From NCBI GenBank assembly GCA_026461395.1, contig JAPJNA010000049.1, positions 3,516-67,515 of the forward strand: 64,000 nt of DNA. The letters run 5' to 3'. Of this stretch, positions 16,978-36,728 are shown piece by piece; positions within the stretch are counted from its first letter, which is position 1; each line of letters starts with the position of its first letter. The notes beneath the pieces were generated by a model. It made no database searches, was not told where the DNA came from, and saw only the letters and a list, made by a program, of their open reading frames with translations. The translations under genes and the position numbers were made by a program. Origin of the DNA: Chthoniobacterales bacterium (GTDB lineage: Bacteria; Verrucomicrobiota; Verrucomicrobiia; Chthoniobacterales; UBA6821).

Positions 16978-17646
16978 ATGATCCGACTCGTCAAAGCCTC
17001 CCGCTCCTACGGCACACCTCCAGTCACCGCACTCGACTCGGTTTCTCTGGAGATCGGGCGCGGTGAATTCATCGCCATCACCGGGGCCAGCGGTTCGGGC
17101 AAAAGCACGCTGCTGAACCTGCTGGGAGGTCTTGACCACCCCACCTCGGGCGAGGTCATCGTGGATGGGATCCACCTGGAACATGCGAATGACCAAACCC
17201 TGACCCAGTACAGGAGGCTTAAGCTGGGGATCGTCTTCCAGTTCTTCAACCTACTTCCCTCCATGACCGTTGTGGAGAATGTCGAGCTGCCTCTCTTGCT
17301 ACGTGGCGATCCCTCCTCGGGAGTCAGGCAAGCTGCCCTGGCTATGCTCGATCAGGTCGGGATGACTCAGCGTGCCATGCACTTCCCCCACCAGCTCAGC
17401 GGAGGCGAGATGCAGCGGGCTGCCATTGCCAGGGGACTGGTCCATGGCCCCTCCCTCCTGCTGGCGGATGAACCGACGGGGAATCTGGACAGTGAAAACG
17501 CTTCCCAAGTCCTCGATGTGATTGCAAAGATTGCTTCCCGCCGCACCTCCACCGTCATTATGGTAACCCACAGCGATTCGGTGGCGGCCTTGGCCGACCG
17601 GCGTATCAGGATGAAGGATGGACGCATCACTCCGGATGCCACCTGA
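16978..17646 (+). CDS. LolD-like ABC transporter ATP-binding protein
   Basis: GASGSGKST, LSGGEMQR, ADEPTGNLD; start ATG 16978. Confidence 0.9.
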   Translation: MIRLVKASRSYGTPPVTALDSVSLEIGRGEFIAITGASGSGKSTLLNLLGGLDHPTSGEVIVDGIHLEHANDQTLTQYRRLKLGIVFQFFNLLPSMTVVENVELPLLLRGDPSSGVRQAALAMLDQVGMTQRAMHFPHQLSGGEMQRAAIARGLVHGPSLLLADEPTGNLDSENASQVLDVIAKIASRRTSTVIMVTHSDSVAALADRRIRMKDGRITPDAT

Positions 17647-17695
17647 CGCGCCTCTTCATTATCCTCCTAACACCTTAAGACACAGAAGATTTTCC

Positions 17696-19000
17696 ATGGA
17701 ACTCCAGCGCACTCTTGCGAAGTCTGCCAGCCTCACTGGCGCCGCCCTCCACAACGGAGGCAATGTCACCCTGACCATCCATCCGGCTCCAGTCTGCTAC
17801 GGTTATAAATTCCGCCGGTCGGATCTTCCTGATGAGCCGATTGTGGATGCCTTGGTCGAGCATGTGAAGACTGTCGAGCGGTCCACCACACTCGTGCAGG
17901 GAAATGCCAAGATCCAGACCGTCGAGCATGTCCTCTCGGCCTTGGCCGGCCTCGGTGTTGATAATGCCCTCATCGAGATGGACGCGAACGAGCCTCCGAT
18001 TGGCGATGGCAGTGCCGCCCCCTATGTCGCCCTGATCCAGCAGGCAGGCATCATTGACCAGGATGCTGCCCGCTCACCCTTCGAGCTAGGCCAACCGATT
18101 CACCTGGAGACTAGTGGCGGCTCCATCATGTCGGTCTTCCCTCATCCGGGATTCAAGATTTCCTGCACCCAGGCAAATCACGACGGCCGCTTCACCCAAT
18201 ACCTCTCCCTGGAGATCACCCCCGAGGTGTATGCGCGGGAAATCGCCCCCGCGCGCACCTTCGTTCATTACGAGGATGTGAAGGATCTGATGGAAAAGGG
18301 CCTTATCAAGGGTGGCAGTCTGGAGAATGCCCTCGTGATCCGTGGCGAATCAGTTCTCAGTAAAGAACCGCTCCGCTTTCAGGACGAGTTCGTCCGTCAT
18401 AAGATCCTCGATATCATCGGCGATCTGGCACTTGCGGGACGTCCCCTGAGAGGTCACGTCGTCGCCGTCAGGCCCGGCCATGGCCCCAATACAGAACTCG
18501 CGCGCGCCATTGCCAAGCGCCATAGCGACCTTCTGGCCATGGCTCCCACTCCAGTAACCTCGTCGGCACCCGTGATGGATATCAACGAGGTGATGCGTGT
18601 CCTTCCCCACCGCTATCCCTTCTTGATGGTGGACCGTGTCGTGGAATTCGACGGCGACACCAAGGCCGTCGGAGTCAAATGTATCTCGATCAACGAGCCC
18701 TTCTTCCAGGGTCACTTCCCGGGCCACCCAGTCATGCCGGGAGTCCTGCAACTCGAGGCCATGGCCCAGGTCGCCTCGATTGTTATGATGCGCAAGAGCG
18801 AGAATACCGGAAAAATCGGCTACTTCATGAGCGCCGATGAAGTGAAGTTCCGCAAGCCAGTTTTCCCTGGCGACACACTCTTCATTCATGTGGAGATGCT
18901 CAAGGCTCGCAAGAATCTGGGCAAAGCTTCCTGCAAGTGCGTCGTGAACGGCGATGTGGTGAGCGAAGGATCACTCCTCTTTGGCATCATCAACAAATAA
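17696..19000 (+). CDS. lpxC-fabZ: Bifunctional LpxC-FabZ
   Basis: EHVLSAL and HKILD (LpxC) followed by LPHRYPFL and GHFPGHPVMPGVL (FabZ); start ATG 17696. Confidence 0.95.
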   Translation: MELQRTLAKSASLTGAALHNGGNVTLTIHPAPVCYGYKFRRSDLPDEPIVDALVEHVKTVERSTTLVQGNAKIQTVEHVLSALAGLGVDNALIEMDANEPPIGDGSAAPYVALIQQAGIIDQDAARSPFELGQPIHLETSGGSIMSVFPHPGFKISCTQANHDGRFTQYLSLEITPEVYAREIAPARTFVHYEDVKDLMEKGLIKGGSLENALVIRGESVLSKEPLRFQDEFVRHKILDIIGDLALAGRPLRGHVVAVRPGHGPNTELARAIAKRHSDLLAMAPTPVTSSAPVMDINEVMRVLPHRYPFLMVDRVVEFDGDTKAVGVKCISINEPFFQGHFPGHPVMPGVLQLEAMAQVASIVMMRKSENTGKIGYFMSADEVKFRKPVFPGDTLFIHVEMLKARKNLGKASCKCVVNGDVVSEGSLLFGIINK

Positions 19001-19009
19001 GAGTCCGTC

Positions 19010-19783
19010 ATGGCACGCATTCATCCTACAGCCATCATCGAGACAACGGCCAAAATCGGCCAATCCAGCACCATCGGGCCCTACTGCATCATCGGCGCAG
19101 GCGTGGTCATCGGTGAACAATGCGAGTTGCATGCCCATGTCACCATCGCCGGCCCCACAAAGATCGGCAACGGCAACAAATTCTACCCCTACTCATGCAT
19201 CGGCCATCGCAGTCAGGATCTCAAGTATGAGATCGAGCCGACCTACCTCGAGATCGGTGACGAAAACTGCTTCCGCGAATTCACGACCGTTCACCGCGCC
19301 ACTGCACCGGACGGCGTCACGCGCATCGGCAGCCGCGGCAACTTCCTGGCCTACTCCCACATCGCCCATGACTGCGTGGTCGGTGACGATGTCGTCTTTT
19401 CCAACAACGGCACCCTAGCCGGTCATGTGGTTGTCGGGGATCATGCGGTGATCGGCGGACTCAGCGGCGTGCATCAGTTCTGTCGCATCGGCGCACATGC
19501 CATTGTGGGGGGATGCACCAAGATCGTGCAGGATGTCCCCCCATTCCTGATCGCCGACGGCAATCCGGCCGAGATCCGCGGCGTGAATTTCGTGGGACTC
19601 GAGCGGCGCGGATTCGCGCCGGAAGCGATCCGGGAACTCCGCGATGCCTACAAGCTGGTCTACCGTAGTAATCTTAACACCAGTCAGGGATTGGACGCGC
19701 TCAGGGCTCAATTCGCTTCCTCGGCACTTGTCACTCATCTCGCCGATTTCATCGCAACAAGCGAACGCGGCATCGTACGCTGA
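19010..19783 (+). CDS. lpxA: UDP-GlcNAc acyltransferase
   Basis: Hexapeptide repeats, FREFTTVHRAT, SHIAHDC, QDVPPF. Confidence 0.96.
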   Translation: MARIHPTAIIETTAKIGQSSTIGPYCIIGAGVVIGEQCELHAHVTIAGPTKIGNGNKFYPYSCIGHRSQDLKYEIEPTYLEIGDENCFREFTTVHRATAPDGVTRIGSRGNFLAYSHIAHDCVVGDDVVFSNNGTLAGHVVVGDHAVIGGLSGVHQFCRIGAHAIVGGCTKIVQDVPPFLIADGNPAEIRGVNFVGLERRGFAPEAIRELRDAYKLVYRSNLNTSQGLDALRAQFASSALVTHLADFIATSERGIVR

Positions 19784-19870
19784 ACGGCATCCTGCAGACG
19801 CGCCTCCCTCGGCGGAACTTCCCATTGGAAGAAACCCGTCATGAAACGGAACTCTCTGCATTTTAAAACT

Positions 19871-20692
19871 ATGGCCCGTACTATTCCTCTCGAAGACGGC
19901 TTCACCGACATCATCGGTAAGGCTCAACGCGGACAATCCATCACCGACGAGTCGCTTGCCGGACTCGCCGGAATCAGCCTCTCGGCAATCCAATCCCTCA
20001 AGGCGGGTAATCTCGACGAAGCCACCCTCACGAAGGTGGCGGGAGCCCTGGGGCTGGGTGCCAACGCCCTACTGGCCCTGGCCCGGGGAAGCTATCAACC
20101 CGTGCCGATCACAGCGCCGGAGGGACTCGCTTGCTTCAACACGGACTTCGAGGACATGACGGTGAATTCCTACCTCGTCTGGGATCCCTCCACGCGCGAG
20201 GCCGCCTTCTTCGATACCGGGGCTGACGGCCAACCGATGCTCGATTTCGCGTCTGCCCACAACCTCAAGGTGAAACAGATTTTCATCACCCACATCCACA
20301 CGGATCATATCCTCGACCTCGACAGGCTGATCGAGAAAACCGGCGCGCAGGCCTGGGCCTGCGTGAAGGAGCCGCTGGCGGGAGCCGAGTCGTTCAAGCC
20401 CGGACGCTCCTTCACAATCGGAAACCTCTCCGTTGAGACGCGCGAAACCAGCGGTCATGCCGCGGGTGGCGTGACTTTTGTCGTGGGTGGACTTGTCCAA
20501 CCGGTCGCCATCGTCGGCGACTCGATCTTCGCCGCTTCCATGGGTGGGGGTATGGTCTCCTATGCCGACGCCGCACGAAACAACCGAGAGCAGGTGCTGA
20601 CCCTTCCCGATGCTTCCATCATTTGCTCCGGACACGGTCCCCTTACGACCGTGGGGGAGCAAAAAGTCGCCAATCCGTTTTTCGCGGCCTGA
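19871..20692 (+). CDS. MBL-fold metallo-hydrolase with N-terminal HTH-like region
   Basis: THIHTDH, SGHAAG, GDSIF, GHGP; first ~60 aa resemble an XRE helix-turn-helix. Confidence 0.82.
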   Translation: MARTIPLEDGFTDIIGKAQRGQSITDESLAGLAGISLSAIQSLKAGNLDEATLTKVAGALGLGANALLALARGSYQPVPITAPEGLACFNTDFEDMTVNSYLVWDPSTREAAFFDTGADGQPMLDFASAHNLKVKQIFITHIHTDHILDLDRLIEKTGAQAWACVKEPLAGAESFKPGRSFTIGNLSVETRETSGHAAGGVTFVVGGLVQPVAIVGDSIFAASMGGGMVSYADAARNNREQVLTLPDASIICSGHGPLTTVGEQKVANPFFAA

Positions 20693-20719: not shown

Positions 20720-21610
20720 ATGAGCAAAGAAACCATCGCAGTCGTAGGAGTCGGCCGTATGGGCGCCAACATGGCGCACCGCCTCAAGGACCGGGGATAC
20801 AGCGTCGCCGCCGTCCATGACAGCCATGCCCCGCTGGCCGCAGAACTGGCCGCCGAACTTGGGGCGGAGGCGGTGGGATCGCTGGCGCGCGTCACGGAAC
20901 TGGCCGACGTCATCCTCACCGTCGTCACCGACGATAAAGCGATGCACGCGATTTTCCAACCGCAGGGGGACAGCCTGGTGAACGGAGCGAAGGGGAAGCT
21001 CTTCATCAACTGTGCCACCGTCTCCCCTGCGGTGCATCTTGCCGTCGAGGAAGTCGCCCACCAGGCGGGCGCTGAATCCCTCGAGGCCTGCATGGCTTCG
21101 AGCATCACCCAGGCCCGGGAAGGAACGCTCTACCTCATGACTGGAGGTGCCGACCAAGCCTTCCGTCGCGCCGAACCGATCCTCAAGGATCTCAGCGCTT
21201 CGCTCCGTCACATTGGCGCCACTGGCAAGGCGGCCCAGGTCAAGGCCCTCGTCAACATGGTCATGAACATCAATACCGCAGGCCTCGCCGAGGGACTTGG
21301 ACTGGGAGCCGCCCTCGACCTCGACCTGACCATGCTGCGTGAGGTCTTCTCCCAGACCGGCGCGAACTCCCGGGTGCTCGTGACCGACGGCGAGGATATG
21401 CAGAACCGCGACCACTCCTGCTTCTTCTCCGGCGCCCACGCCGCCAAGGACAGCGGTATCGCACTGGCACTGGCGCAGGAAAAGGGACTTACCCTCCCCC
21501 TTGCCGAGGCGACCAAGAAGCAGTATGACCGGATGGTCTCCGAGGGCTTCGGCGAACTCGATAAATCCGGTGTCGCAGAACTCACCTTCCTGGAAAGGGG
21601 AAGCAAGTGA
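20720..21610 (+). CDS. 3-hydroxyisobutyrate/6-phosphogluconate dehydrogenase-family NAD(P) oxidoreductase
   Basis: GVGRMGANMA, NCATVSP, KALVN, AKDSGIA. Confidence 0.88.
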   Translation: MSKETIAVVGVGRMGANMAHRLKDRGYSVAAVHDSHAPLAAELAAELGAEAVGSLARVTELADVILTVVTDDKAMHAIFQPQGDSLVNGAKGKLFINCATVSPAVHLAVEEVAHQAGAESLEACMASSITQAREGTLYLMTGGADQAFRRAEPILKDLSASLRHIGATGKAAQVKALVNMVMNINTAGLAEGLGLGAALDLDLTMLREVFSQTGANSRVLVTDGEDMQNRDHSCFFSGAHAAKDSGIALALAQEKGLTLPLAEATKKQYDRMVSEGFGELDKSGVAELTFLERGSK

Positions 21611-21663
21611 CAGCCCCCGAATCCCGACTCACCTTTAAGATTCCCAAACAACATCCATCAACC

Positions 21664-22476
21664 ATGAAACTCCTCTTCATCTGCCCCCGCTGGGGAAGCG
21701 AATCGCTTCCCTCCCAAGACTTCATCACCAAAGTACGCGAGGCGGGATATGATGGTGTCGAGATCGGGTTCCTAGATGTCGATCCCGCGGCCGAGGAGAC
21801 CGTCGCCCTCGCCAAGGCCGCCGGACTTGCGTTAATCACCCAGCACTGGACAACCCAGGATCGCGATCTTGAGAAGCACCTCGAACTCTACGGCCAGCGA
21901 CTGCACCGAATGGCGGGATTCCAGCCCCTCTTTGTCAACAGCCACACAGGCCGTAACCTTTTCAGCCTTGAGGAGAACAAGCGTGTCTTCGCCGTTGCTG
22001 AAAAAGTGGCCGCCGAGACGGGCATCCCGATCCTTCACGAGACCCATCGAGGCCGTTGTCTGCACACGCCATGGAGAACCGGGGAGTTGTTGGCCGCGAT
22101 GCCTGCCACGCGGATCGTGCTCGATATGTCACATTGGTGCAATGTCTGCGAATCGCTGCTCGAAGATCAGGATGACCTGATCGAACCCCTTCTTCCTGCC
22201 GTCGACCATATCCACGCCCGCGTGGGATGGCAGCATGGTCCCCAGGTTAGCGACCCGCGCGCGCCCGAGTGGAGCGATGCCGTGAATGCGCACCTCAAGT
22301 GGTGGGACAAGATCATTGCCGCACGCCGGGCTTCGGGCATCGCCCAGTTCACGATCTGCCCCGAATTCGGGCCGCCACCTTATCTGCCTCTCCTTCCCTA
22401 CACCCAGCAACCCGTCGCCAACCAGTGGGACATCAATGTCCACATGATGAACTTCCTGCGCGACCGCTATCGGTGA
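21664..22476 (+). CDS. Xylose-isomerase-like TIM-barrel sugar phosphate isomerase/epimerase
   Basis: GYDGVE, HETHRGR, D.SHW, HIHARVG, PEFGP; start ATG 21664. Confidence 0.8.
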   Translation: MKLLFICPRWGSESLPSQDFITKVREAGYDGVEIGFLDVDPAAEETVALAKAAGLALITQHWTTQDRDLEKHLELYGQRLHRMAGFQPLFVNSHTGRNLFSLEENKRVFAVAEKVAAETGIPILHETHRGRCLHTPWRTGELLAAMPATRIVLDMSHWCNVCESLLEDQDDLIEPLLPAVDHIHARVGWQHGPQVSDPRAPEWSDAVNAHLKWWDKIIAARRASGIAQFTICPEFGPPPYLPLLPYTQQPVANQWDINVHMMNFLRDRYR

Positions 22477-22515: not shown

Positions 22516-23421
22516 TCACCAATAGATGCGCGGAGCGATTTCCGGTGGAAGGGGATTCGGGGGCGGCGGCTCGCTCCGCAACAGGGAGCGCCTCACTAGC
22601 GTAGGGGATTTCCCGTAAACGCGGGTGAAGCAGCGCGTGAAGTAGAGCGGGTTCTCGAAGCCGCAGCGGTCGGCAATCTCCTTCACCGCGAGACCGGAAC
22701 GTCCGAGTAAAGCGAGCGCAAGCTGGAGCTTGAGCAAACGGAAAGTCTCCATGGGCGAGTGGCCGAGCGACTTCCGGAAGAGGCGGCAGAGATGCTTCTC
22801 GGTCACGCCCGACCGTGCCGCCAACTCCCCCAACTGGAGGGCCCGAGACGGCTTGATGTCGAGGGTCTCCCTCATCAGGTTAAGCGAGGTATGAACGGAA
22901 TCGGGGAGGCGGGCTCCGATGGAGATCCCGCTCTCATGCGAGGGCTTGAGAAGGACCGTCATCAGACACCGTAGGAAACGGCTCTCCTCAACACCGGCGC
23001 TGAGCGTGGGCCAATCCGACTCCCCTTGCGTGGCGATGTTCTCGAGAAGATGCCTCAGCATCGGGGCGACGACCTCCGGGGGATTGGCATGGCAGACGGG
23101 CCACTTCCCCGGATCGGGCCAGTCCGAGGGGATCGTGGCGATGTCGAAATGGATATAGGCATGGCGTGTCGCGAGGCGGCGGTCCCACCGGTAGGACTCC
23201 CGGAAACCGGGGCGGGCCAGGATCACGCTCCCGGGCGGAGCCTGATGCTCCTCATCATCATGCCGGTAGGTCGCCGTCCCCTCGATCATGAGCACCAGTT
23301 CATAGTCCTTCAGGGTCCGTGGAACCAGGCGGTCGCCCGGACGGTAATGGACCACTCCCCCGTAGAGATATTTCAGAACGAGGGCATCCTCGCGGGCTGG
23401 CTCGATGTCTGGAAAGGGCAT
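22516..23421 (-). CDS. AraC-family transcriptional regulator
   Basis: N-terminal cupin; C-terminal HLCRLF..IADRCGFENPLYFTRCF double HTH. Confidence 0.92.
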   Translation of the reverse strand: MPFPDIEPAREDALVLKYLYGGVVHYRPGDRLVPRTLKDYELVLMIEGTATYRHDDEEHQAPPGSVILARPGFRESYRWDRRLATRHAYIHFDIATIPSDWPDPGKWPVCHANPPEVVAPMLRHLLENIATQGESDWPTLSAGVEESRFLRCLMTVLLKPSHESGISIGARLPDSVHTSLNLMRETLDIKPSRALQLGELAARSGVTEKHLCRLFRKSLGHSPMETFRLLKLQLALALLGRSGLAVKEIADRCGFENPLYFTRCFTRVYGKSPTLVRRSLLRSEPPPPNPLPPEIAPRIYW

Positions 23422-23448
23422 AAGGGTCGTGCATAAAATTGCACAGAC

Positions 23449-23464
23449 CTTGGGTTAACCCAAG
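23449..23464. promoter_or_regulatory. Perfect 16-bp palindrome, candidate operator
   Basis: cttgggttaacccaag in the divergent araC/desaturase spacer. Confidence 0.45.
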
Positions 23465-23555
23465 CACTCATGCGAATTTCGTGCATGTTTTCACGACTCC
23501 TGACCATTGGCAAAACTCACGGAAGGACTAGCTTGAGGAAGTAATTCCCATCCTA

Positions 23556-23583: not shown

Positions 23584-25872
23584 ATGAGCACCGACCACGC
23601 AACCGCCGCTATCTCCAAACCGCCGACGAAGCTCGACTACAGCCTGACCGGTGAAAACGCCGCCCGCGCCATCGAGCGCGGCCTCGCCGAAGCGGACTGG
23701 TACCAATGCGCCGTTCCCCGGGCGACCATGAGGAAGTTGCTGGAGCGGCGCGACGGACCGGCGATCCGCGACACGCTTCTCTGGTTTGCCCTGATCCTTG
23801 GTGCCGGATACGCCACGTTCGCGCTCTGGGGCACCTGGTGGGCTCTCCTCCCTTACTTAGTGTATGCGGTGCTCTACGCCTCAACCTCCGACTCGCGATG
23901 GCATGAGGCGGGCCATGGCACGGCCTTCAAGACTGACTGGATGAACAATGCCCTCTACGAGATCGCTTCCTTCATGGTCATGCGCGAATCGACCGTCTGG
24001 CGCTGGAGCCATACCCGTCATCACAGCGATACGATCATCGTCGGCCGCGATCCCGAAATCTTGGTTCCGCGCCCACCCGACATCGCCGGGATCATCAAGG
24101 CCTTCTTCCACCTTCCAGTCTATCCGAATTATTTCAAACATATCCTCATGCACGCCTTCGGACGGATGAGCGCCGATGAGAAAACCTACATTCCTGAGAG
24201 CGAGTTTCCCAAGATCTACCGCAAGGCACGGATCTACTTCCTCATCTATGCCTCGGTCATCGCCCTTGCGATAGCGACCCGCAGTATCCTGCCCCTCCTC
24301 TTTGTGGGCCTTGCCAACATGGTAGGATCGTGGCTCATGGTCGTCTACGGTCTGACCCAGCATACTGGCCTCGCGGAGAACGTCCTCGATCACCGCCTGA
24401 ACTGCCGCACCGTCCGGATGAACTTTATCAACCGGTATCTCTACTGGAACATGAACTACCACGTAGAGCACCACATGTTCCCGCTCGTTCCCTATCATGC
24501 GCTCCCGCGCCTCCACGAGGCCGTTAAGGAGGATATGCCTACACCCTACCATAGCCTCCTCCATGCCTGGAGCGAAATCATTCCCTCCGTCCTGCGACAG
24601 GTGAAGGATCCCGCATATCACGTGAAGCGCAAGCTGCCCGAACCGAAGGCGCGTCTGCAGGAGGGCCTCCACGCCAACGAGGCGCAACCGGATGCTGAGG
24701 GGTGGATCGAGGTCTGCTCCGCGCAGGATCTCGGCCCGGCCGACGTGATCCGCTTCGACCACGGCAAGAAGACTTACGCCCTCTACCGGGACGAACATGG
24801 CACGCTCTTCGCAACCGACGGCATCTGCACCCATGGCAACACCCACCTTGCCAACGGCCTCGTCAAGGGATCGATCATCGAGTGTCCGAAGCATAATGGC
24901 CGCTTCAACCTCGCCGACGGATCCCCAGCGCGCCCGCCGATCTGCCGCGGACTGGCCACCTATCCTCTCGAAGAGCGCAACGGACGCCTTCGTCTTAACA
25001 TCGCACAGATCGGGGGTGCCGGTGCCCGCCATCAGAAAAGCTATACCCTGCGCGTCGTCAGCAACCAGAGCGTGGCCACCTTCATCAAGGAACTCGTCCT
25101 CGAACCGGCCGATCCCTCCGAAAAGATCGCCTTCACCCCCGGCGACTACCTCCAGCTCGACATCCCCTCCTATGGGATGATTCGGTTCCGGGAATTCGAT
25201 ATTCCCGAACCGTACGCATCGGTCTGGGAAGCCCAGCACGTCTTCGACCTCGTCGCGCGGAATCCCGAAGGCGGCCGCCGTAACAACTACTCGCTGGCCT
25301 CCAACCAGCAGACTGAGCGGATCCTCCGCTTCAATGTCCGCATTGCCACGCCGCCACCCGGACAGGATTGCCCCCCCGGCGTCGGTTCCGCCTATGTCTT
25401 CAACCTCAAGCCCGGCGACACCGTCACCGCCATCGGCTCCTTCGGCGACTTCCACATCAAGCCTACCCAACGCGAGATGGTCTACATCGGCGGAGGCGCC
25501 GGGATGGCCCCGCTGCGCTCCCATCTCTCTCATCTCTTCGAGACGGAGAAGACTGCACGCAAGGTCAGCTTCTGGTACGGAGCCCGCTCACGCCAAGAGA
25601 TCTACTACAACGAATATTTTGATCAGCTTTCCAGGGAGCACTCGAATTTTAATTTTAACCTCGCCCTCTCCTCTCCTCTTCCCGAGGATGCCTGGAAGGG
25701 ACTGGAGGGCTTCATCCACGAAGTCGTGCTGGAACGCCACCTCAAAGACCATCCCAATCCCAAAGCCGTCGAATACTATCTCTGCGGCCCCCCGATGATG
25801 GTCAAGGCCTGCACCAAGATGCTCGCCGACCTTGGCGTTCCCGCCAACCAGATCGCCTACGACGAGTTTTGA
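23584..25872 (+). CDS. Fusion of membrane di-iron desaturase/oxygenase (MocD-like), Rieske ferredoxin (MocE-like) and NqrF-like FAD/NAD(P)H reductase
   Basis: His boxes H107EAGH, H143TRHH, H293VEHH; Rieske C415-x-H..C434-xx-H; NYSLAS, GGGAGMAP, WYGARS, YYLCGPP. Confidence 0.9.
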   Translation: MSTDHATAAISKPPTKLDYSLTGENAARAIERGLAEADWYQCAVPRATMRKLLERRDGPAIRDTLLWFALILGAGYATFALWGTWWALLPYLVYAVLYASTSDSRWHEAGHGTAFKTDWMNNALYEIASFMVMRESTVWRWSHTRHHSDTIIVGRDPEILVPRPPDIAGIIKAFFHLPVYPNYFKHILMHAFGRMSADEKTYIPESEFPKIYRKARIYFLIYASVIALAIATRSILPLLFVGLANMVGSWLMVVYGLTQHTGLAENVLDHRLNCRTVRMNFINRYLYWNMNYHVEHHMFPLVPYHALPRLHEAVKEDMPTPYHSLLHAWSEIIPSVLRQVKDPAYHVKRKLPEPKARLQEGLHANEAQPDAEGWIEVCSAQDLGPADVIRFDHGKKTYALYRDEHGTLFATDGICTHGNTHLANGLVKGSIIECPKHNGRFNLADGSPARPPICRGLATYPLEERNGRLRLNIAQIGGAGARHQKSYTLRVVSNQSVATFIKELVLEPADPSEKIAFTPGDYLQLDIPSYGMIRFREFDIPEPYASVWEAQHVFDLVARNPEGGRRNNYSLASNQQTERILRFNVRIATPPPGQDCPPGVGSAYVFNLKPGDTVTAIGSFGDFHIKPTQREMVYIGGGAGMAPLRSHLSHLFETEKTARKVSFWYGARSRQEIYYNEYFDQLSREHSNFNFNLALSSPLPEDAWKGLEGFIHEVVLERHLKDHPNPKAVEYYLCGPPMMVKACTKMLADLGVPANQIAYDEF

Positions 25873-25878
25873 GCGCCC

Positions 25879-26250
25879 ATTCCTAGCACCTGCTCACCCT
25901 TCGGCCAACTCCCGGACGGCCCGTTCCGTCGAGCGCTTCACCCTGGCGAACGGCAAGGGACTCGAATGCGATGTCATTCCCCTGGGGAGAACCATTACCG
26001 ATCTACGTCTCCCACACCCACCCGGCGAGCGGGCTCACCATGACGGCCCTCACAATGCAAGATTGCGTGCGGGTTTTCAGCGCAACCGTCCTCGACGGCT
26101 CCCTGATAGGGAAGTCTGGAAGGCCTTATGAAAAACATGCGGGACTCTGTCTGGAGCGCCAGGAAGCCCCGGAGCGGTGCACACGCCCCTATTGGGTGAC
26201 ATCATTCTCCGCCCCGGAAAGCACTACGATCAGACCACCCTCTCCCGGTC
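25879..26250 (+). pseudogene. galM: Aldose 1-epimerase (mutarotase) remnant with frameshifts and a large deletion
   Basis: Segments FGQLPDG, VERFTLANGKG, HPASG..LDGSLIGKSGRPYEKHAGLCLE and IILRPGKHYDQTT are GalM-like and lie in shifting frames. Confidence 0.75.
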
Positions 26251-27649
26251 ACCCCTTCCAGCCGAAGAACTTCCGTGACTTGATGATCTCGGCTACCTTG
26301 GCGGGAACCATTTGCTCCCATTCCGGATCACCTTTCTGAAGTTTGGTCAGGGCCTTGGCAGAATCGATGCCTAGGTAATCGAGCTTGCAACCGGCCATCG
26401 GAACGATGAAACGATTCTCGATCAGGTAGGCGTACAAAGCCCGCAGACTGGGATCGACCTTGTAGGAGGCGGCTTCGATGATGTGTCCCTTGTCGTCCTT
26501 GGTGGGATAGACATAGAGACGCACCCCCTTCTTGAAGAGCCGCCCAAGACCCTCGAGAATGCCTCCGTCCAGATTGGTGTAGTACTTCTCGTCGAAGATC
26601 TCGTGGAGACTCGGAATGCCAAGCGGCATCCCTATGGCGCGGTCAGTGTAGCGCCGCAAATACTGAATCAGCCGGTAGAACTCACCGTAATTGGAGATAA
26701 GCACAGTCTGACCTAGAGCACCGAGCATGTCGACGCGGTCGAGGAAATCCTGCAGGTCGAGTTCCCCGCCGCTCATCAGATTCCTCATCGTGATTTCCAG
26801 GATGATCTCGGGCTTCTCGTCGTTCAGTTCCTCCTCCATTAGGAACATCGAGTGACCGCACTCGAGCATGTCGTAAGCGACATTGGTGACCGGTCGGAAA
26901 CTGCCGCGCTCGATGATGAGGGGCTTGTGATAAAAGGCATCCGCCGCCTGCACCACTTCCCCATCGGGACGGAATAGCACGGCCTGAGCAAGACCCTGGG
27001 TGACCAGCTCCAGACACATGATTCGGTTGTCAACCATCGCAAAATCAGGTCCCGAGAACCGGATCATGTCGATCTCGATGCGCGTTGACTCGAGATCATC
27101 CAGGAGCGAGGCAATGAATTTCTTCAGATCCTTGCGAAGGAAAAACGCCCCGTAGATGAGGTTCAGCCCGACGATGCCCAGCGCCTCCTGCTGCTCGAGG
27201 TTATGTGGATCGAGCATGCGGACATGCATGATGATCTCGTTGGGCTGAGCACGGGGATGACTCTGGTAGCGGATTCCCATCCATCCGTGGGATTCATTGA
27301 GCGTCTTGTAGGACCTGGCCGCAACAGTATCGGCAAAGGCAAAGAAGGTGCGCTCCGCTCCGACCTTCTCGTCGAGACGTTCGATCAGCAGATCGTACTC
27401 ATGGTCGAGCATCTCGCCCAAGCGCTGACGACTGACAAAGCGCGTACTCTTCCCGTAGATCGCATCCGAGAAGGTCATGTCATAGGCGGAGATCGTCTTG
27501 GCTACAGTCCCAGCGGCACCGCCTACATGGAAGAAACGTCGGGCGACTTCCTGGCCTGCCCCAATCTCGGCGAAGGTGCCATAGATCGGCTTAGCCATGT
27601 TGATCTCAAAGGCCTTCTTGTTCGCTTTCAGATCGATCGGATTGAGCAT
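26249..27649 (-). CDS. Conserved protein of uncertain function (nucleotidyltransferase-like; family often labelled nicotinate-nucleotide adenylyltransferase)
   Basis: YGTFAEIGAGQEVAR, AKTISAYDM, degenerate GSFRPVT motif, C-terminal WEQMVP. Confidence 0.65.
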   Translation of the reverse strand: MLNPIDLKANKKAFEINMAKPIYGTFAEIGAGQEVARRFFHVGGAAGTVAKTISAYDMTFSDAIYGKSTRFVSRQRLGEMLDHEYDLLIERLDEKVGAERTFFAFADTVAARSYKTLNESHGWMGIRYQSHPRAQPNEIIMHVRMLDPHNLEQQEALGIVGLNLIYGAFFLRKDLKKFIASLLDDLESTRIEIDMIRFSGPDFAMVDNRIMCLELVTQGLAQAVLFRPDGEVVQAADAFYHKPLIIERGSFRPVTNVAYDMLECGHSMFLMEEELNDEKPEIILEITMRNLMSGGELDLQDFLDRVDMLGALGQTVLISNYGEFYRLIQYLRRYTDRAIGMPLGIPSLHEIFDEKYYTNLDGGILEGLGRLFKKGVRLYVYPTKDDKGHIIEAASYKVDPSLRALYAYLIENRFIVPMAGCKLDYLGIDSAKALTKLQKGDPEWEQMVPAKVAEIIKSRKFFGWKG

Positions 27650-28359: not shown

Positions 28360-30165
28360 CTAAGCCGGTTGCTCAACCCACTTGTTGTGCTCTTTAATTA
28401 AATCCACCAGGCGATCAACAGCTTCCAATTCTGGAATGTTGAATTTCACAGCTTGCTTTCCGACATAGAGGTTCACCTTGCCAGGAGCTCCGCCGACATA
28501 GCCGAAGTCGGCGTCTGCCATCTCTCCCGGGCCGTTGACAATGCAACCCATGACCGCAATGCGGACACCCTTGAGATGAGAGGTCGAGGCCTTGATCCGA
28601 GCCGTAGTCTCCTGGAGGTTGAAGAGGGTGCGGCCGCAGGAAGGGCAGGCGACATAGTCGGTCTTGAAGATGCGGACGCCAGCAGCTTGGAGGATATTAT
28701 AAGCAAGCCGCAGGGACTGTCCCGGAGCCTCCTCGGAGCGCAGTAGGACGGCATCACCGATTCCGTCACAGAGTAGCGATCCCAGAACGGTTGCTGCTGA
28801 GAGGAGATGATCAATAAATTCACCGCCTGAAGCAGGAGTGAATATATCCTTCAGCAGAATTGGATGACGCGAATTCACCTGCGCAGCAAGCAGTCGGAAG
28901 GCAACGATGGGATCCACCGCAACGCCATCGCGCACGGTGATAAGGCGCGGCTCCGAAACCGCATTCACTGCGGCGATCTCTTCCGGAGAGAGGGGGTCCA
29001 CTTCCACTAGTAACAAGTCTTCGAGGATCAGTTCCGGCTGGTAGTCGCCGAGCACGTCACGCTTGTGGGCCACGGCCTCATCGACGCGTCGCGGCACAGT
29101 AACAGCGACAGTTTCTGTTCCTCCCAGAGCGATCCGCCGAGTGATGCCCTCCAGGACGATCCGTTCGGTAGCACGCCTTTGATAGTCGAAAAGCGGCCAG
29201 TTAGCTTGGATCCCGGAAACTGGGGAGACGGCGGCAATTCGTGTTTCAAAGGGAGCCACCAAGGCACGCGCCACAGGGATCTCATGCTCGCTATCCTCGG
29301 TCAGCGAGACGCGGATGGTATCGCCGATCCCGTCGGAAAGGAGAGAACCTATCCCGATGGCACTCTTGATCCGCCCATCCTCGCCGTCACCCGCCTCCGT
29401 CACACCGAGATGGATCGGATAGTTCCAGTCGGGCCCCTCCGCATTCAGTCGGGCCACAAGTAAACGATACGCGGCGATCATGACTTTCGGATTTGAGGCC
29501 TTCATCGAGAAGATCATCTGATGAAAATCGAGATCCCGTGCGATCCGTGCAAACTCCAGGGCACTCTCCACCATGCCGAGTGGTGAGTCGCCGAAGCGAT
29601 TCATGATCCGGTCGCTGAGCGATCCGTGGTTGGTTCCGATCCTCAGTGCCACACCGCGCTTCTTGGAGAGACTAACAAGCGGAGTGAAACGCTCCCGGAT
29701 GCGCTCCAGTTCTGCGGCATATTCCGCATCCGTGTAATCTCGGACATTGAATTTTTTCGAGTCGGCGAAGTTTCCTGGATTGATGCGGACCTTCTCTACC
29801 CAAAGCGCGGCCTCCATCGCCGCTTCCGGCTTGAAATGGATGTCGGCAACGAGAGGAACGTTACAACCGCGCGCATTCAACTCCGCACGGATTTTTTGGA
29901 GATTAGCGGCATCCTTCACGGTCGGCGCCGTGATACGAACCATTTCACATCCGACCTCGACCAGTCGCAGCGTCTCCCGGATACAGGCCTCCGTATCCAT
30001 TGTGTCGCTGGTGATCATCGACTGGATCCGGATCGGATTGGCCCCACCAAACCCCAAGCCTCCAATGATCACTTCACGACTGGGACGTCGTGCGTAGGAG
30101 AAGAGATCGGCCGCATAGCTGAGCGGCACTCCCGTTTGGGCTGCGGCATCACCCGCCCTGCTCAT
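28360..30165 (-). CDS. ispG: HMBPP synthase, long form
   Basis: IQSM, PLVADIHF, RINPGN, RIGTNHGSLS, CPSCGR, GCIVNGPGE. Confidence 0.96.
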   Translation of the reverse strand: MSRAGDAAAQTGVPLSYAADLFSYARRPSREVIIGGLGFGGANPIRIQSMITSDTMDTEACIRETLRLVEVGCEMVRITAPTVKDAANLQKIRAELNARGCNVPLVADIHFKPEAAMEAALWVEKVRINPGNFADSKKFNVRDYTDAEYAAELERIRERFTPLVSLSKKRGVALRIGTNHGSLSDRIMNRFGDSPLGMVESALEFARIARDLDFHQMIFSMKASNPKVMIAAYRLLVARLNAEGPDWNYPIHLGVTEAGDGEDGRIKSAIGIGSLLSDGIGDTIRVSLTEDSEHEIPVARALVAPFETRIAAVSPVSGIQANWPLFDYQRRATERIVLEGITRRIALGGTETVAVTVPRRVDEAVAHKRDVLGDYQPELILEDLLLVEVDPLSPEEIAAVNAVSEPRLITVRDGVAVDPIVAFRLLAAQVNSRHPILLKDIFTPASGGEFIDHLLSAATVLGSLLCDGIGDAVLLRSEEAPGQSLRLAYNILQAAGVRIFKTDYVACPSCGRTLFNLQETTARIKASTSHLKGVRIAVMGCIVNGPGEMADADFGYVGGAPGKVNLYVGKQAVKFNIPELEAVDRLVDLIKEHNKWVEQPA

Positions 30166-31643
30166 GGCTTTGGAGGGGAAACCGGCGAGGGAGCCGCAAC
30201 AGTGGAAGCAGGAGATTTTGGCGAGAAGGTCATGATTTCCGCTGTTTTGTCACTCGTAGCTGCCGCTGCAGATTTGTGTCCCTTCACTAAGTCACTGACA
30301 TCGTAAAAGGAGATATAGAGCATGGTTCCGATCAGCAGCATGGCAAAGGTGGTCTGGACAATCTCCAGCGTCTTCTGATGGATCGGATGTCCGCAAATCC
30401 ATTCGATAAAGGCCAACAGGATATGCCCGCCGTCGAGAACAGGCAGCGGGAGCATATTCATGACGGCCAGGTTGACGTTCAGAACGACACTGAACCAAAG
30501 GGCCAACTGCCACCCCATCGGACTCTGGAAGAGAAGGTAGTAGATCCTCATGATCCCAACGGGCCCGCTGAGCTGTTGGACGCCTATTTCGGAATGGCGG
30601 GCCGTGACGGCCGAGATGGTCTCCCACATGGTCAGAAGGCTCGACTTGATCTGGGTGATGGGATCCGGATGGACCAGCCTGACAAGCCCGCGCTGATCCC
30701 ATTGGATACCGAGGCGTACCTGCTTCTCGCCCTCCGGAATGCGTGGGGTGATGGAAATGGGGAAATCTGTACTGCCACGGCGGATTGTCAGAGTCACTGG
30801 GGCTCCCTTGGTGGCGCTTAGCAGCTCTGCAAGTGTCTGGCCGCTGTACAGAGTCTGCGCATTGGCAGCAATCACGAGATCACCGGCTCGTAGCCCGGCC
30901 TCTTCAGCGGGGCTGTTTGGGATGACCCGCGCAATCAACGGGGTCATGGCCGGAATAATCTGGATCTGGCGCAGGTTCTTCCGCCCCCAACCTTTGGTTG
31001 GCTCGACAACGGGCTCCACCTCGACCGCCGATTGCTTGCCGGCGCGTTCGTACCGGATAGGCACCACGGGAGCCGAGCTGATAGCTAGATTCCAGGCAAC
31101 GCTGTCACTCATCCGCCCCATGCCATTAATCCGAGTGACCGGATGTCCGTTGACGGCCAGGATCCTGTCTCCAGGTTGCAGTCCAGCCTTGGCAGCGGGT
31201 CCTCCCTCAAGGACATAGCCAATCATGTTGGTCGTTTCGGCCTCGCTGACAGGGCGGCCAACATACCAAACCACGCAGGCAATCAGAAAAGCTAGTCCAA
31301 GGCTAGCGGCGGGACCGGCAAGAGCGACGATGATCTTGTCGAGGGGGCGTGCCGGCGGCAAGGCCTCACCCTTCTCATTGGTCTCACCTTCCAAAGCCTC
31401 CATGGGGGCGAGCTGAGGAATAGCCACGAATCCTCCAGCAGGAATGCTGCCGAGCCTGTATTCTACGCCGTTGATTGTCTTGGACCAGAGCGCCTTGCCG
31501 AACCAGATAGCGAACTTCTCCACTTTCAGACCACGCCATTTAGCGGCGAAAAAGTGGCCCAACTCATGCACGACAATGAGCAGGTTGAAGAGGAGTACCA
31601 CCTCGAGAATAATACCGATGACTTTAAGGGCTCCTAAAAACAT
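30162..31643 (-). CDS. rseP: RIP metalloprotease RseP with PDZ domains
   Basis: HELGH, LAGP, NMLPLPVLDGG; start ATG 31643. Confidence 0.93.
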   Translation of the reverse strand: MFLGALKVIGIILEVVLLFNLLIVVHELGHFFAAKWRGLKVEKFAIWFGKALWSKTINGVEYRLGSIPAGGFVAIPQLAPMEALEGETNEKGEALPPARPLDKIIVALAGPAASLGLAFLIACVVWYVGRPVSEAETTNMIGYVLEGGPAAKAGLQPGDRILAVNGHPVTRINGMGRMSDSVAWNLAISSAPVVPIRYERAGKQSAVEVEPVVEPTKGWGRKNLRQIQIIPAMTPLIARVIPNSPAEEAGLRAGDLVIAANAQTLYSGQTLAELLSATKGAPVTLTIRRGSTDFPISITPRIPEGEKQVRLGIQWDQRGLVRLVHPDPITQIKSSLLTMWETISAVTARHSEIGVQQLSGPVGIMRIYYLLFQSPMGWQLALWFSVVLNVNLAVMNMLPLPVLDGGHILLAFIEWICGHPIHQKTLEIVQTTFAMLLIGTMLYISFYDVSDLVKGHKSAAAATSDKTAEIMTFSPKSPASTVAAPSPVSPPKP

Positions 31644-31714
31644 GAACGCCAAGCCTCGCCCCTACCGGGGTAAAAATCAATCGCTATGCGCTTCCGAAGG
31701 AGGCAGAGGTAAGC

Positions 31715-33110: not shown

Positions 33111-33130
33111 TAGGGAAGCGCGCTTCCCTA
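33111..33130. other. Perfect 20-bp palindrome at the rhaT stop
   Basis: tagggaagcgcgcttcccta. Confidence 0.6.
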
Positions 33131-34303
33131 GCCTTGACCCTTGAGCCAGGTCCCGATGCCGATGATGATCGTGGAAAGAATCAGCGTGCCGATGCCCATG
33201 GCAATAAGGGCGTGGGTCTTTTTGCTCGCCCCCTTCCACTCGTGGAAGATCCATCCCCACATCGTGCTAAAGATGATGATGCTGGCCATGTGGAGCGTCC
33301 AACTGGCGAAGCCGAACCTGCCCATCTGGGTCTCGCCCATCGTGTAGAAGAAGAACTGTAGGTACCAGATCGTCCCGGCCAGGGCGGAGAGGATGTAGTT
33401 CCTGACCATCGGCACCCGGAGACCTTCGCCTATCGGATCGTGGTCGGGGGCTGCAACGGGAGTGATGCTCCCATGCTCACCACCCCCGGCACCGCCGAGA
33501 GCCGCATGTTCCTTACGCACTGTGCCGCTGAGGTACTGGTAGGCCGTGCCGTTCTTGAAGTGGAGGAACAGACACCAGAGGAAGTTCGTCGTGAAGCCGC
33601 CGAGCAGAACGACCACCAGCTTCGGAAGTCCTGTCCAGATCTGATCCGTGCCGGCCAGCAGCGAGGCCTCTCCGATCGGTTTGCCGGCCGTGAGGGCGAA
33701 GGCGAAGCAGGCGCTCATGACGCCGGAGAAGGTGGCGACAGCCATCCCCTTGGGGAAGTTGAACTCCTTGACGGCTTCCGTCTTCGCCGACTCGTCCATT
33801 TCCCGCTCCTTGTTGAGTCCCGCCAGGGCGGCGAGTCCGATGCCAAAGAGGCAGGCCACGACACCGATCAGCGTGATCTGGCCGGGCAGCGTGGAGGCGA
33901 TCTGGACGATTGTTTCGTCGCACGGAATGGAGGGGATGAAGAGCTTGGCGATGGGCGGAAGGAGCGTCCCGAATGCGGCGCAGTAGCCGAGGGCGACACC
34001 CATGCCGAGCGACATGCCGAGATAGCGGATCGTGAGGCCGAAGGTCAGGCCACCCAGACCCCAGAGACATCCGAAGAAATAGGTCCACAAGAGCGTACCG
34101 CCACTCTGGCGCGTGATCACACCGTGCAGATCATGTGTCATCACCAGCGCCATCAACGACGGCATGATGATCCAGGAGGCGACACCGCCGACCATCCAGG
34201 CGGTTTCCCAGGCCCACTTCTTCACAAAGCGGTACGGGACATAGAAACTTCCGGAGGCAAAGCCGCCGAGCCAGTGAAAGAAGACGCCGAGGAAGGGATT
34301 CAT
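33128..34303 (-). CDS. rhaT: L-rhamnose/H+ symporter
   Basis: [35 protein letters not shown]. Confidence 0.92.
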
Positions 34304-34325
34304 GACCGGGGGGAGGAGGAATGCG

Positions 34326-35759: not shown

Positions 35760-35822
35760 CTCGGCAAAGTAACAGATGGCCTCCGTCGGGGAATGCGGAT
35801 AATGATCTTTTTCATACAGAAT

Positions 35823-36728
35823 ATGACCAACTTTCCCAAGAGGGATGAGCGGACGAAGGATGACTATTTCCGCTATTTTCCCGACACCAAGGACCTCGAA
35901 CGCTGGGGCATCTGGGTCTCCGCTTCCGGCATCGCCACCGTGGCGCCGGGGAACCCCTACCCTCCGCTCCCCCACCCCGGGGACCATCATTTCGAGTGGG
36001 AACGGGGACGGGTCCTTGAATCCCTCCAGATCGTGATGGTGACCGCGGGCGAAGGACTACTCGAAACCCGGCAGACCGGCGCGAAGCGGATCAGCGCGGG
36101 GAGCGTCATCCTCCTTCGCCCCGGGGTATGGCACCGCTACAAGCCCGAGCCGGAGACGGGCTGGAGGGAAAGCTGGATCGAGATGCGGGGGCGGGTGGTC
36201 ACGGATCTCCTGCAATCCGGAACCATTCCCGACGGCCCCCTGCTCCGGGGAAGCCGGCTCACGCCTCTTCTCGAGGAACTCCTTGAGACGATCCACAGGA
36301 GAACGGGCGCGAAAATCCCCACCCACCGGCCGGAACTCTCCGCGGAGGCGCTCAGGATGCTGGCGCTCCTCTGCGGCATGGAGGCGGAGGAACCCGCCGG
36401 GGAGACCCTCCGCGCGGCCGTCACGCGGGCCGAACACCACCTGGCCGAACACCACGCCGAATCCCTCGACATGCAGGATATGGCAAGGATGCTCGGGGTC
36501 TCTTACTCTAGCTTTCGCCGCGCCTTCCGGAAAGAGACAGGCCTCTCCCCCTGGCAGTATCTCATGAGCGTCCGCCTGAACCGTGCGCGCCGACTGCTCT
36601 CCTCACGTGAGACCAAGCTCGAGTCGGTCGCGGCCGCCGTCGGGTTCAGCTCCGCCTTTCACCTCTCTGCGGCGTTCAAAAAGGCCTACGGAGTTTCCCC
36701 CGGCAACTGGAGAAAACAGGATCGGTAA
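35823..36728 (+). CDS. AraC-family transcriptional regulator
   Basis: Real start ATG 35823 inside the supplied 808-aa ORF; PGVWHRY cupin, SYSSFRRAF, VGFSSAFHLS. Confidence 0.9.
   Translation: MTNFPKRDERTKDDYFRYFPDTKDLERWGIWVSASGIATVAPGNPYPPLPHPGDHHFEWERGRVLESLQIVMVTAGEGLLETRQTGAKRISAGSVILLRPGVWHRYKPEPETGWRESWIEMRGRVVTDLLQSGTIPDGPLLRGSRLTPLLEELLETIHRRTGAKIPTHRPELSAEALRMLALLCGMEAEEPAGETLRAAVTRAEHHLAEHHAESLDMQDMARMLGVSYSSFRRAFRKETGLSPWQYLMSVRLNRARRLLSSRETKLESVAAAVGFSSAFHLSAAFKKAYGVSPGNWRKQDR

Follow-up and report, generated by a model that had tools for sequence, protein, structure and literature searches.

Histidine-box di-iron hydroxylases of the membrane that work with a reductase and an iron-sulfur carrier form a known kind of system, represented by AlkB/AlkG/AlkT, XylMA and MocDEF. 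XylM/XylA and AlkB/AlkG/AlkT consist of separate components and hydroxylate methyl groups of hydrophobic substrates; they draw on NADH via an FNR-like or flavoprotein reductase, and their carrier is a plant-type ferredoxin domain (XylA) or a rubredoxin (AlkG). According to the accounts given in two papers, the mocDEF genes are credited, on genetic grounds, with the demethylation of 3-O-methyl-scyllo-inosamine (PMC13434037 citing Bahar 1998; PMC10107442). A 2026 review calls the role of the other, non-rhizopine mocDEF clusters 'unresolved' and places the xylose isomerase gene xylA2 of P. syringae consistently downstream of mocDEF (PMC13434037). A fused system is also on record: the three-domain alkane monooxygenase ferr_ferrR_AlkB exists and is active, as outlined in a review (Nie 2014; Williams 2021, reviewed in PMC8918992) that reports no ferredoxin-fused desaturases to its date. 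We describe here a 762-residue protein encoded in a 64,000-nt stretch of a Chthoniobacterales genome (contig JAPJNA010000049.1; the whole stretch is called the window), which joins a MocD-type di-iron oxygenase, a Rieske [2Fe-2S] ferredoxin and an NqrF-type FAD/NADH reductase in a single chain.

The fusion gene is one unbroken open reading frame (ORF) at 23584..25872 (+), starting with ATG, as had been claimed in an earlier reading of the letters, hereafter the sequence-only reading. A Pfam scan detected FA_desaturase at residues 84-325 (119.4 bits, above the gathering score of 29.7 that defines membership), Rieske at 374-461 (61 bits), NAD_binding_1 at 635-744 (70 bits) and, weakly, FAD_binding_6 at 550-624. 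The three histidine boxes and the Rieske motif CxH-x16-CxxH described in that reading are present (Table 1), and every reductase motif that it quoted was found in the translation: VATFIKEL, RIATPP, LKPGD, GGGAGMAPLRSH, WYGARS, GFIHEV and EYYLCGPP. The complete set of cofactor motifs that it had assigned to the three-domain chain is borne out by Pfam, NCBIfam and an alignment of 36 sequences. Invariant in this alignment are the eight histidines of the boxes, four additional histidines (H260, H270, H305 and H311), the four Rieske ligands, R566/Y569/S570, G636-P643, C734GPP and the C-terminal F762. A single chain thus carries all three domains with their full complement of ligands, and purifying selection on it is strong. 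A stop codon or frameshift between the domains was named in the sequence-only reading as grounds for refutation. The gene is continuous, at ~757-766 codons, in 78 independently assembled loci, showing that the fusion is neither an assembly artefact nor a missed frameshift.

This architecture is common, not rare. Scanning one genome per GTDB species revealed full-length relatives in at least 595 species-level genomes, belonging to about six phylum-level groups. The best 80 of these carriers, with identities of 62-95%, were broken down by taxon: 39 Verrucomicrobiota, 31 Acidobacteriota, 4 Bacteroidota (one of them the cultured Winogradskyella sediminis DSM 28134), 2 Kiritimatiellia, 1 Phycisphaerae, 1 Verminephrobacter (Betaproteobacteria) and 2 unclassified genomes. 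The closest relative among the matches listed, at 95% identity, is locus L003 of a 'Spartobacteria' metagenome-assembled genome. Thousands of relatives are found in the protein database, and the best 120 all have the same domains, a length of ~757-769 residues and 76-99% identity. Many members are labelled 'NADH:ubiquinone reductase (Na(+)-transporting) subunit F' by PGAP, because the equivalog model TIGR01941 passes its cutoff on a partial match, while IMG uses 'MocE subfamily Rieske protein'. Each name covers one third of the protein and is a misannotation. The architecture is at once uncharacterised, abundant and mis-annotated.

The histidine boxes of the catalytic membrane domain are invariant in both fused and unfused members. 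Hydropathy analysis revealed two hydrophobic hairpins (residues ~63-97 and ~214-258) and a conserved N-terminal segment predicted to be cytosolic. In the AlphaFold2 (AF2) model of the domain alone (pLDDT 74, pTM 0.72), long helices span residues 57-80, 85-102, 205-232 and 236-260. This two-hairpin, four-helix topology, which is that of the family, would leave the histidine boxes on the cytoplasmic side of the membrane, together with both termini and hence with the Rieske and the reductase parts. Foldseek searches with this model retrieved the desaturase-like subunits 8xks_K and 8xqw_M (TM-scores of 0.55-0.60, weak E-value of 2.5e-3) and, as a distant fold match, FtAlkB 8sbb_A (probability 1.0, TM-score of 0.43, weak E-value of 0.05). 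A sequence-profile search of the PDB, with a profile of fused and unfused catalytic domains, gave no match at E<=10, AlkB and SCD included. Since AlkB and SCD sequences escape this profile, the catalytic domain is a separate branch of the class III di-iron membrane enzymes, distant and structurally unexplored.

The ligands of the Rieske domain are spaced as C415-T-H417, 16 residues, then C434-P-K-H437. Its best-matching Rieske family in NCBIfam is the MocE family TIGR02377, at 111 bits, below the curated cutoff of 136.15, and the Rieske ferredoxins 2qpz, 5bok and 1vck of the PDB match at 1e-15 to 1e-17. Pfam detected no Rieske-oxygenase catalytic domain in the fusion, and the Rieske part resembles ferredoxin components, not the alpha subunits of Rieske non-haem iron oxygenases. 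The reductase module scores 339.9 bits against the nqrF equivalog TIGR01941 of NCBIfam (cutoff 295), while the next-best reductase families (flavohemoprotein, MmoC and BenC) reach ~89 bits. NqrF FAD/NADH domains of the PDB match at 2.9e-86 to 2e-75 (260-294 bits, HMMER), compared with 7e-19 for the best non-NqrF reductase. The module thus sides with NqrF rather than with ordinary oxygenase reductases. Like NqrF of Vibrio cholerae (PDB 8a1t_F, 7xk3_F and 4u9u), it has the RxYS, GGxGxAP and CGPP motifs and a C-terminal Phe, and local alignments to NqrF-type proteins give 45-51% identity. The match is restricted to positions 128-403 of the 405-position profile, leaving positions 1-127 unmatched, and Pfam found no Fer2 in the fusion. 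These data confirmed the sequence-only reading, in which the reductase was NqrF-like but devoid of the membrane anchor and 2Fe-2S domain: unlike NqrF, the fusion lacks the N-terminal transmembrane helix and the plant-type [2Fe-2S] domain, and has the Rieske domain in the corresponding position. It also lies outside an nqr operon, and its predicted electron acceptor is the oxygenase, not NqrD/E.

In order to see where else this module occurs, residues 481-762 were searched against 1.84 billion representative proteins, which yielded 232 representatives below 1e-30. The module is shared with plant-type-ferredoxin proteins of ~405-430 residues, which have the NqrF architecture, are 42-51% identical to it and carry Fer2 in the representatives found. 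It also occurs alone, in 298 residues. Other fusions observed (among P0130, P0137, P0156, P0174 and P0184) join it to PepSY-TM and Fer2 (610-846 residues), to an NrfB-like cytochrome c and Fer2 (556 residues) or to an FKBP/trigger-factor-like N-terminus (437 residues). In a neighbour-joining tree without outgroup, the Rieske-linked modules form one clade among the Fer2 proteins (bootstrap 96/100), with members from Verrucomicrobiota, Acidobacteriota, Bacteroidota, Phycisphaerae and one betaproteobacterium. Because all Rieske-linked modules fall into this clade, the tree supports one single event, in which a Rieske domain would have replaced the plant-type ferredoxin domain before the NqrF-type FAD/NADH module. 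The sequence-only reading had seen here the recruitment of a respiratory-complex module. The grouping with NqrF stands, but the direction is conjectural, the module being present in non-NqrF proteins as well and the tree having no outgroup; the donor may have been respiratory NqrF or another carrier of the module. A 441-residue protein with Rieske and reductase domains (P0124) was considered as a two-domain intermediate and dropped: its gene begins at contig base 1, and it is probably a truncated three-domain protein.

The relationship to MocDEF emerged from a translated plasmid search, in which residues ~14-474 of the fusion aligned at 50-55% identity to adjacent genes of Rhizobium, Sinorhizobium and others. 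This pair is annotated 'fatty acid desaturase family protein' and 'MocE family 2Fe-2S ferredoxin', and an 'FAD-dependent oxidoreductase' gene comes next. The earlier suggestion that the first two domains resemble the separate MocD and MocE is thus borne out at the level of homologous catalytic and Rieske domains. The two systems also have in common the chain from reductase to Rieske ferredoxin to membrane di-iron oxygenase, and a setting of sugar or cyclitol regulators and transporters: unfused Mesorhizobium systems adjoin a LacI regulator, a ribose-type ABC transporter, a Gfo/Idh/MocA dehydrogenase and an SDR, and the MocD-like gene of R. etli has a LacI regulator and a TIM-barrel protein as neighbours. 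The third rhizobial component is a Pyr_redox_2 plus Reductase_C enzyme. Since this MocF-type pyridine nucleotide-disulfide oxidoreductase fold is not homologous to the FNR-fold, NqrF-type module, the reductase has been swapped for a non-homologous one between the rhizobial systems and the fusion. Other differences are that the fusion is one polypeptide where MocDEF has three separate genes, that its Rieske domain scores under the MocE-family cutoff, that the host phyla differ and that no mocA/B/C/R lies beside it, its neighbours in the window being genes for an AraC regulator, a HIBADH-like dehydrogenase and a TIM barrel. Nearly all rhizobia have the unfused MocD-like protein, S. meliloti by itself accounting for 378 member sequences (a source calls one of them MocD), so the protein is not confined to rhizopine strains. 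Common family membership of the window TIM barrel and the rhizobial TIM barrel beside MocD-like genes was tried and rejected: BLAST and hhalign found no relationship, and only the superfamily is in common.

The fusion is best grouped with the MocDEF/AlkB-type systems; it is neither NqrF nor a canonical MocDEF. With ferr_ferrR_AlkB it shares the fusion of a class III membrane di-iron hydroxylase to its ferredoxin and to the reductase of that ferredoxin, which makes both self-sufficient by design, and both are mis-annotated by pipelines (PMC8918992). Unlike that protein, in which the partners are N-terminal, the ferredoxin is not of the Rieske type and the substrate is an alkane (PMC8918992), the present fusion carries its partners at the C-terminal side (oxygenase, Rieske, reductase) and combines an NqrF-type reductase with MocD-type catalysis and a carbohydrate context.

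This context was established by clustering the ORFs within 10 kb of the fusion in the 78 loci, which were taken from the genome scan. The commonest partner is a TIM-barrel family of ~270-300 residues (c1), present in 28 loci from six phylum-level groups. In 27 of these it lies within 3 kb of the fusion and on the same strand, typically immediately downstream. The family is mostly invisible to Pfam and NCBIfam, and the only name that sources give to its relatives is 'sugar phosphate isomerase/epimerase'. Residues of the Glu/His/Asp/His/Glu type that resemble a metal site are invariant in it (E145, H147, D173, H176, H203 and E253 in the numbering of the window protein), and a PDB profile search returned only remote similarity, at the level of AsbF/IolE; both features place it in the xylose-isomerase-like superfamily. 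It is split into two subfamilies that are only ~17-22% identical to each other. Aldose 1-epimerase (GalM) is the second commonest partner (19 of 78), usually immediately upstream on the same strand. Divergent AraC-type regulators flank the fusion in about 29 loci (clusters c3 and c4), and sugar transporters of the MFS family are found in 11. Typically the genes run in the order AraC (divergent), GalM, fusion, TIM barrel, MFS, as in L038, L021, L036 and L035. A Pfam census of the 116 immediately flanking genes gave 18 Aldose_epim, 11 AraC and 5 Sugar_tr, to which ~25 TIM-barrel c1 proteins are added; no lipid-metabolism family was found among them. Further functions appear at individual loci: GH106 and GH78-like rhamnosidases in L073 and L081, two GH38 enzymes in L073, a GH38-like protein in L025, KduI and DUF4861 in L065 and beta-helix proteins in L069. 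Aldo/keto reductases and LacI regulators occur as well. The conserved neighbourhood of the fusion is carbohydrate catabolism. Given this context, 'desaturase', as the title of the sequence-only reading had it, is improbable as an activity.

Some neighbours point to one-carbon chemistry. In L025 the fusion is followed, after 17 bp, by the gene of a glutathione-independent formaldehyde dehydrogenase (713 bits, cutoff 637), and in L036 such a gene adjoins the TIM barrel. Formaldehyde dehydrogenase had initially been counted in seven loci; BLAST left these two as genuine FdhA, the other five being generic Zn-dependent alcohol dehydrogenases. MtaA/URO-D-like methyltransferases are found in seven loci, of Methylacidiphilales, Akkermansiaceae, Acidobacteriaceae, Opitutaceae and Prolixibacteraceae. 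Three loci, one from Opitutaceae and two from Acidobacteriaceae, have complete corrinoid methyltransferase sets (Table 1), and in L039 the set directly follows the fusion on the same strand.

From the domain families and gene contexts, the fusion is likely to be an oxygenase that is self-sufficient and has a polar, carbohydrate-like molecule as its substrate. With less assurance, we favour a narrower function, that of an NADH- and O2-dependent monooxygenase which would O-demethylate a methylated sugar or cyclitol and release formaldehyde. The formaldehyde dehydrogenase and methyltransferase neighbours, together with the genetics of MocDEF, make O-demethylation the most economical reading. A methyl ether on a sugar stands in the way of the usual sugar-processing enzymes. 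NADH would reduce the FAD of the C-terminal NqrF-type module, as expected from the behaviour of this domain family. The FAD would hand single electrons to the Rieske cluster, which sits where NqrF has its plant-type ferredoxin domain. The Rieske cluster would in turn reduce the His-ligated di-iron centre of the N-terminal MocD-type domain, so that O2 would be activated at the cytoplasmic face of the membrane. The substrate would most likely be a small, polar O-methylated aldose (or a cyclitol) derived from plant, algal or microbial glycans. Hydroxylation of its methyl ether carbon would give a hemiacetal, which would collapse to the free sugar and formaldehyde. The freed aldose could then be anomerised by the co-encoded GalM and processed by the TIM-barrel enzyme, expression being presumably under a sugar regulator of the AraC or LacI type, here the divergent AraC. 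The electron path proposed is that of known domain families, whereas the reaction and substrate class are suggested by homology to MocDE and by gene neighbourhoods. Because the partner is GalM and not a rhamnose or fucose mutarotase, products of the galactose, glucose, xylose, arabinose or mannose type are favoured.

Hydroxylation of a methyl group is also what XylM and AlkB perform, and the net reaction proposed for the fusion, from methylated monosaccharide to sugar and formaldehyde, has a precedent of another kind. A CYP236A-type P450, assisted by a ferredoxin and a ferredoxin reductase, demethylates 6-O-methyl-D-galactose (Reisky/Robb; PMC6292453, PMC10033563, PMC9400963). This system of marine Bacteroidota, whose genes belong to glycan-utilisation loci and which has a link to formaldehyde detoxification, is the only carbohydrate O-demethylase that we found described in bacteria (PMC6292453, PMC10033563, PMC9400963). 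The likeness is one of analogy, not homology: the fusion is a di-iron, membrane-bound, single protein, while the P450 system is haem-thiolate, soluble and made of three proteins.

Several observations weigh against O-demethylation of a sugar. Many of the 78 loci have no informative neighbours, and those of C1 type, formaldehyde dehydrogenase and corrinoid methyltransferase, are few; the link to formaldehyde dehydrogenase comes down to two related Acidobacteriaceae loci. Corrinoid methyltransferases are oxygen-sensitive, and their pairing with an O2-dependent oxygenase is unexplained. The window's own galM has decayed to a pseudogene remnant. To our knowledge, the structurally or biochemically characterised members of the di-iron superfamily all act on hydrophobic substrates. 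The full-length AF2 model, built from 36 sequences (pLDDT 59.9, pTM 0.38), is too poor for interdomain geometry or cofactor distances. Finally, the literature searched contained no in vitro assay of MocDEF, no genetic data on any fused member and no biochemical description of this architecture; on the last point the sequence-only reading, which knew of none, still stands.

A sugar or cyclitol oxygenase that is no O-demethylase is the alternative that survives best, though we consider it unlikely. Such an enzyme could hydroxylate an unactivated C-H, for instance in the C6 methyl group of a 6-deoxyhexose like rhamnose or fucose; other options are desaturation or oxidation at a ring carbon and N-demethylation of an amino sugar. 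Hydroxylation of a terminal methyl group is the signature reaction of its AlkB/XylM relatives, RhaT-like transporters occur in 4 of the 78 loci in addition to the rhamnosidases mentioned above, and a creatininase-fold hydrolase and an aldo/keto reductase follow the fusion in L065 and L069 (flavobacterial) and L077 (Verrucomicrobiales). In the window, an L-rhamnose isomerase gene (RhaA, 657 bits, cutoff 572) and a RhaT symporter gene (479 bits, cutoff 468) lie 6-10 kb downstream of the fusion. However, synteny of rhaA is restricted to the closest relative, L003, so that, with RhaT-like genes in so few loci, rhamnose is a weak substrate lead. The dominance of GalM over rhamnose or fucose mutarotases also speaks against this alternative, the formaldehyde dehydrogenase and methyltransferase neighbours fit the release of a C1 unit, and the only genetics of the family, that of mocDEF, points to demethylation.

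Less probable still is a lipid or hydrocarbon enzyme that desaturates or hydroxylates acyl chains, hopanoids, carotenoids or alkanes and, like the three-domain AlkB, brings its own electron supply. It would agree with the FA_desaturase membership and canonical histidine boxes, with the fold similarity, at weak E-values, to desaturase-like proteins and AlkB, and with the precedent of a three-domain AlkB active on alkanes (PMC8918992); a housekeeping role in the membrane would also be in keeping with how strongly the protein is conserved between phyla. Yet the 116 flanking genes include no lipid, acyl carrier protein, acyltransferase or alkane-catabolic gene, the regulators are of the AraC and LacI sugar types, the operon partners are GalM, the TIM barrel and sugar transporters, and the catalytic-domain profile retrieves neither AlkB nor SCD from the PDB. 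A variant NqrF subunit of the Na+-translocating NADH:quinone reductase, suggested by the TIGR01941 score and by the name in the sources, has next to no probability and is refuted by domain content: the match is partial, without transmembrane anchor or plant-type 2Fe-2S domain, two thirds of the protein are di-iron oxygenase and Rieske domain, no nqr-like cluster recurs in the flanks of the 78 loci and no nqr gene is present among the identified ORFs of the window.

Table 1. Coordinates of the fusion, its domains and surrounding genes (window positions unless a locus is named).
Feature	Position	Strand	Evidence
Three-domain fusion protein, 762 aa: MocD-type di-iron oxygenase, Rieske ferredoxin, NqrF-type reductase	23584..25872	+	ORF list, domain scans, 78 full-length orthologous loci
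Catalytic membrane domain, FA_desaturase/AlkB superfamily, aa 1-350	23584..24633	+	PF00487, hydropathy, AF2, Foldseek, identity to rhizobial MocD-like proteins
His box 1, HEAGH 107-111 (H107, H111)	23902..23916	+	Translation; invariant in alignments
His box 2, HTRHH 143-147 (H143, H146, H147)	24010..24024	+	Translation; invariant in alignments
His box 3, HVEHH 293-297 (H293, H296, H297)	24460..24474	+	Translation; invariant in alignments
Rieske [2Fe-2S] ferredoxin domain, aa 374-473; ligands C415, H417, C434, H437	24703..25002	+	PF00355 (61 bits), TIGR02377, PDB Rieske ferredoxins
NqrF-type FAD/NADH reductase module, aa 485-762; R566-x-x-Y569-S570, G636GGAGMAP643, C734GPP, C-terminal F762	25036..25869	+	TIGR01941, PDB NqrF domains, tree
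AraC-family regulator, divergent, likely regulator of the fusion gene	22516..23421	-	Pfam HTH_18 and AraC_binding
Xylose-isomerase-like TIM-barrel protein (c1)	21607..22476	+	Weak AP_endonuc_2 match; c1 membership
HIBADH/tartronate-semialdehyde-reductase-like NAD(P) dehydrogenase, immediately preceding the TIM-barrel gene	20720..21610	+	Pfam, NCBIfam
Aldose 1-epimerase (galM) remnant after the fusion	25880..26250	+	Alignment with L003, the closest relative, where the gene is intact (353 aa)
RhaA	31812-33260	-	657 bits, cutoff 572
RhaT	33128-34303	-	479 bits, cutoff 468
Unusually long protein (808 aa) with C-terminal AraC-type domain, beside RhaA and RhaT	34302-36728	+	
Bifunctional LpxC-FabZ (housekeeping)	17618-19000	+	533 bits, cutoff 465
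LpxA (housekeeping)	19010-19783	+	
Long-form IspG (housekeeping)	28360-30165	-	
RseP (housekeeping)	30162-31652	-	
Complete MtaB-like / corrinoid protein / RACo activase / MtaA-like set	L039 9563-17705		
Complete MtaB-like / corrinoid protein / RACo activase / MtaA-like set	L038 14643-20342		
Complete MtaB-like / corrinoid protein / RACo activase / MtaA-like set	L034 14869-20626		

In the window, the TIM-barrel and HIBADH-like genes lie upstream of the fusion, beyond the AraC gene. Since homologs of the TIM-barrel protein have ~270 residues, its gene probably starts at an internal Met at about 21664, which removes the overlap with the upstream dehydrogenase gene. Homologs of the HIBADH-like dehydrogenase (60-66% identity) adjoin the fusion/TIM pair in L023, L059 and L061, and the enzyme is a possible member of the pathway. 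Directly upstream of these two genes, an MBL-fold hydrolase with an N-terminal extension of ~100 residues is encoded at 19841-20692 (+); its best match, hydroxyacylglutathione hydrolase, is far under the cutoff, and no homolog was found in the other 78 loci. The intergenic region between the AraC and fusion genes contains the inverted repeats GTGCA-N6-TGCAC and CATGC-N9-GCATG (23430-23480), which are candidate regulator sites. A promoter and terminator scan around the fusion gene was uninformative (1 promoter-like site versus 1.7 expected).

On the other side of the fusion, the galM remnant keeps ~30 N-terminal and ~80 C-terminal codons; compared with L003, it shows an internal deletion of ~700 bp and a 1-base frameshift. 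In this genome, then, part of the conserved sugar module has been lost to decay. The remnant is followed by a 466-codon ORF (26249-27649, -) without Pfam or NCBIfam match, which encodes a conserved protein, 83% identical in L003 at the same position. The ORFs assigned to RhaA and RhaT overlap by ~130 bp, so one of their starts is probably mis-called. GC content near the fusion is ~0.60-0.62, compared with 0.55-0.63 elsewhere in the window, and the surrounding housekeeping genes indicate that the oxygenase module resides in the core chromosome, with no obvious island.

The labelling of these proteins as 'NqrF' may inflate the inferred distribution of Na+-NQR in Verrucomicrobiota and Acidobacteriota. 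A single-polypeptide, NADH-driven di-iron oxygenase is also an attractive biocatalyst, and a tractable object for structures of electron delivery to class III di-iron centres. As a broader and more tentative proposal, which we put forward as possible rather than probable, this family would be the main P450-independent route for removing methyl ethers from the sugars of plant, moss, algal or microbial glycans in soil and freshwater Verrucomicrobiota and Acidobacteriota and in some marine Bacteroidota. A membrane class III di-iron enzyme would then act on a hydrophilic carbohydrate through a private NADH-FAD-Rieske wire, built once by exchanging the ferredoxin of an NqrF-type protein for a Rieske domain. 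If this is true, a membrane di-iron enzyme of 'lipid type' would be shown to work on a water-soluble substrate, and the whole MocD/MocE family, including the ubiquitous mocDEF-like operons of rhizobia and P. syringae, would receive its first biochemical function. Sugar O-demethylation would have a second solution beside the P450, unrelated to it and far more widespread, which would account for the handling of methylated sugars by abundant polysaccharide degraders of soil, peat and freshwater.

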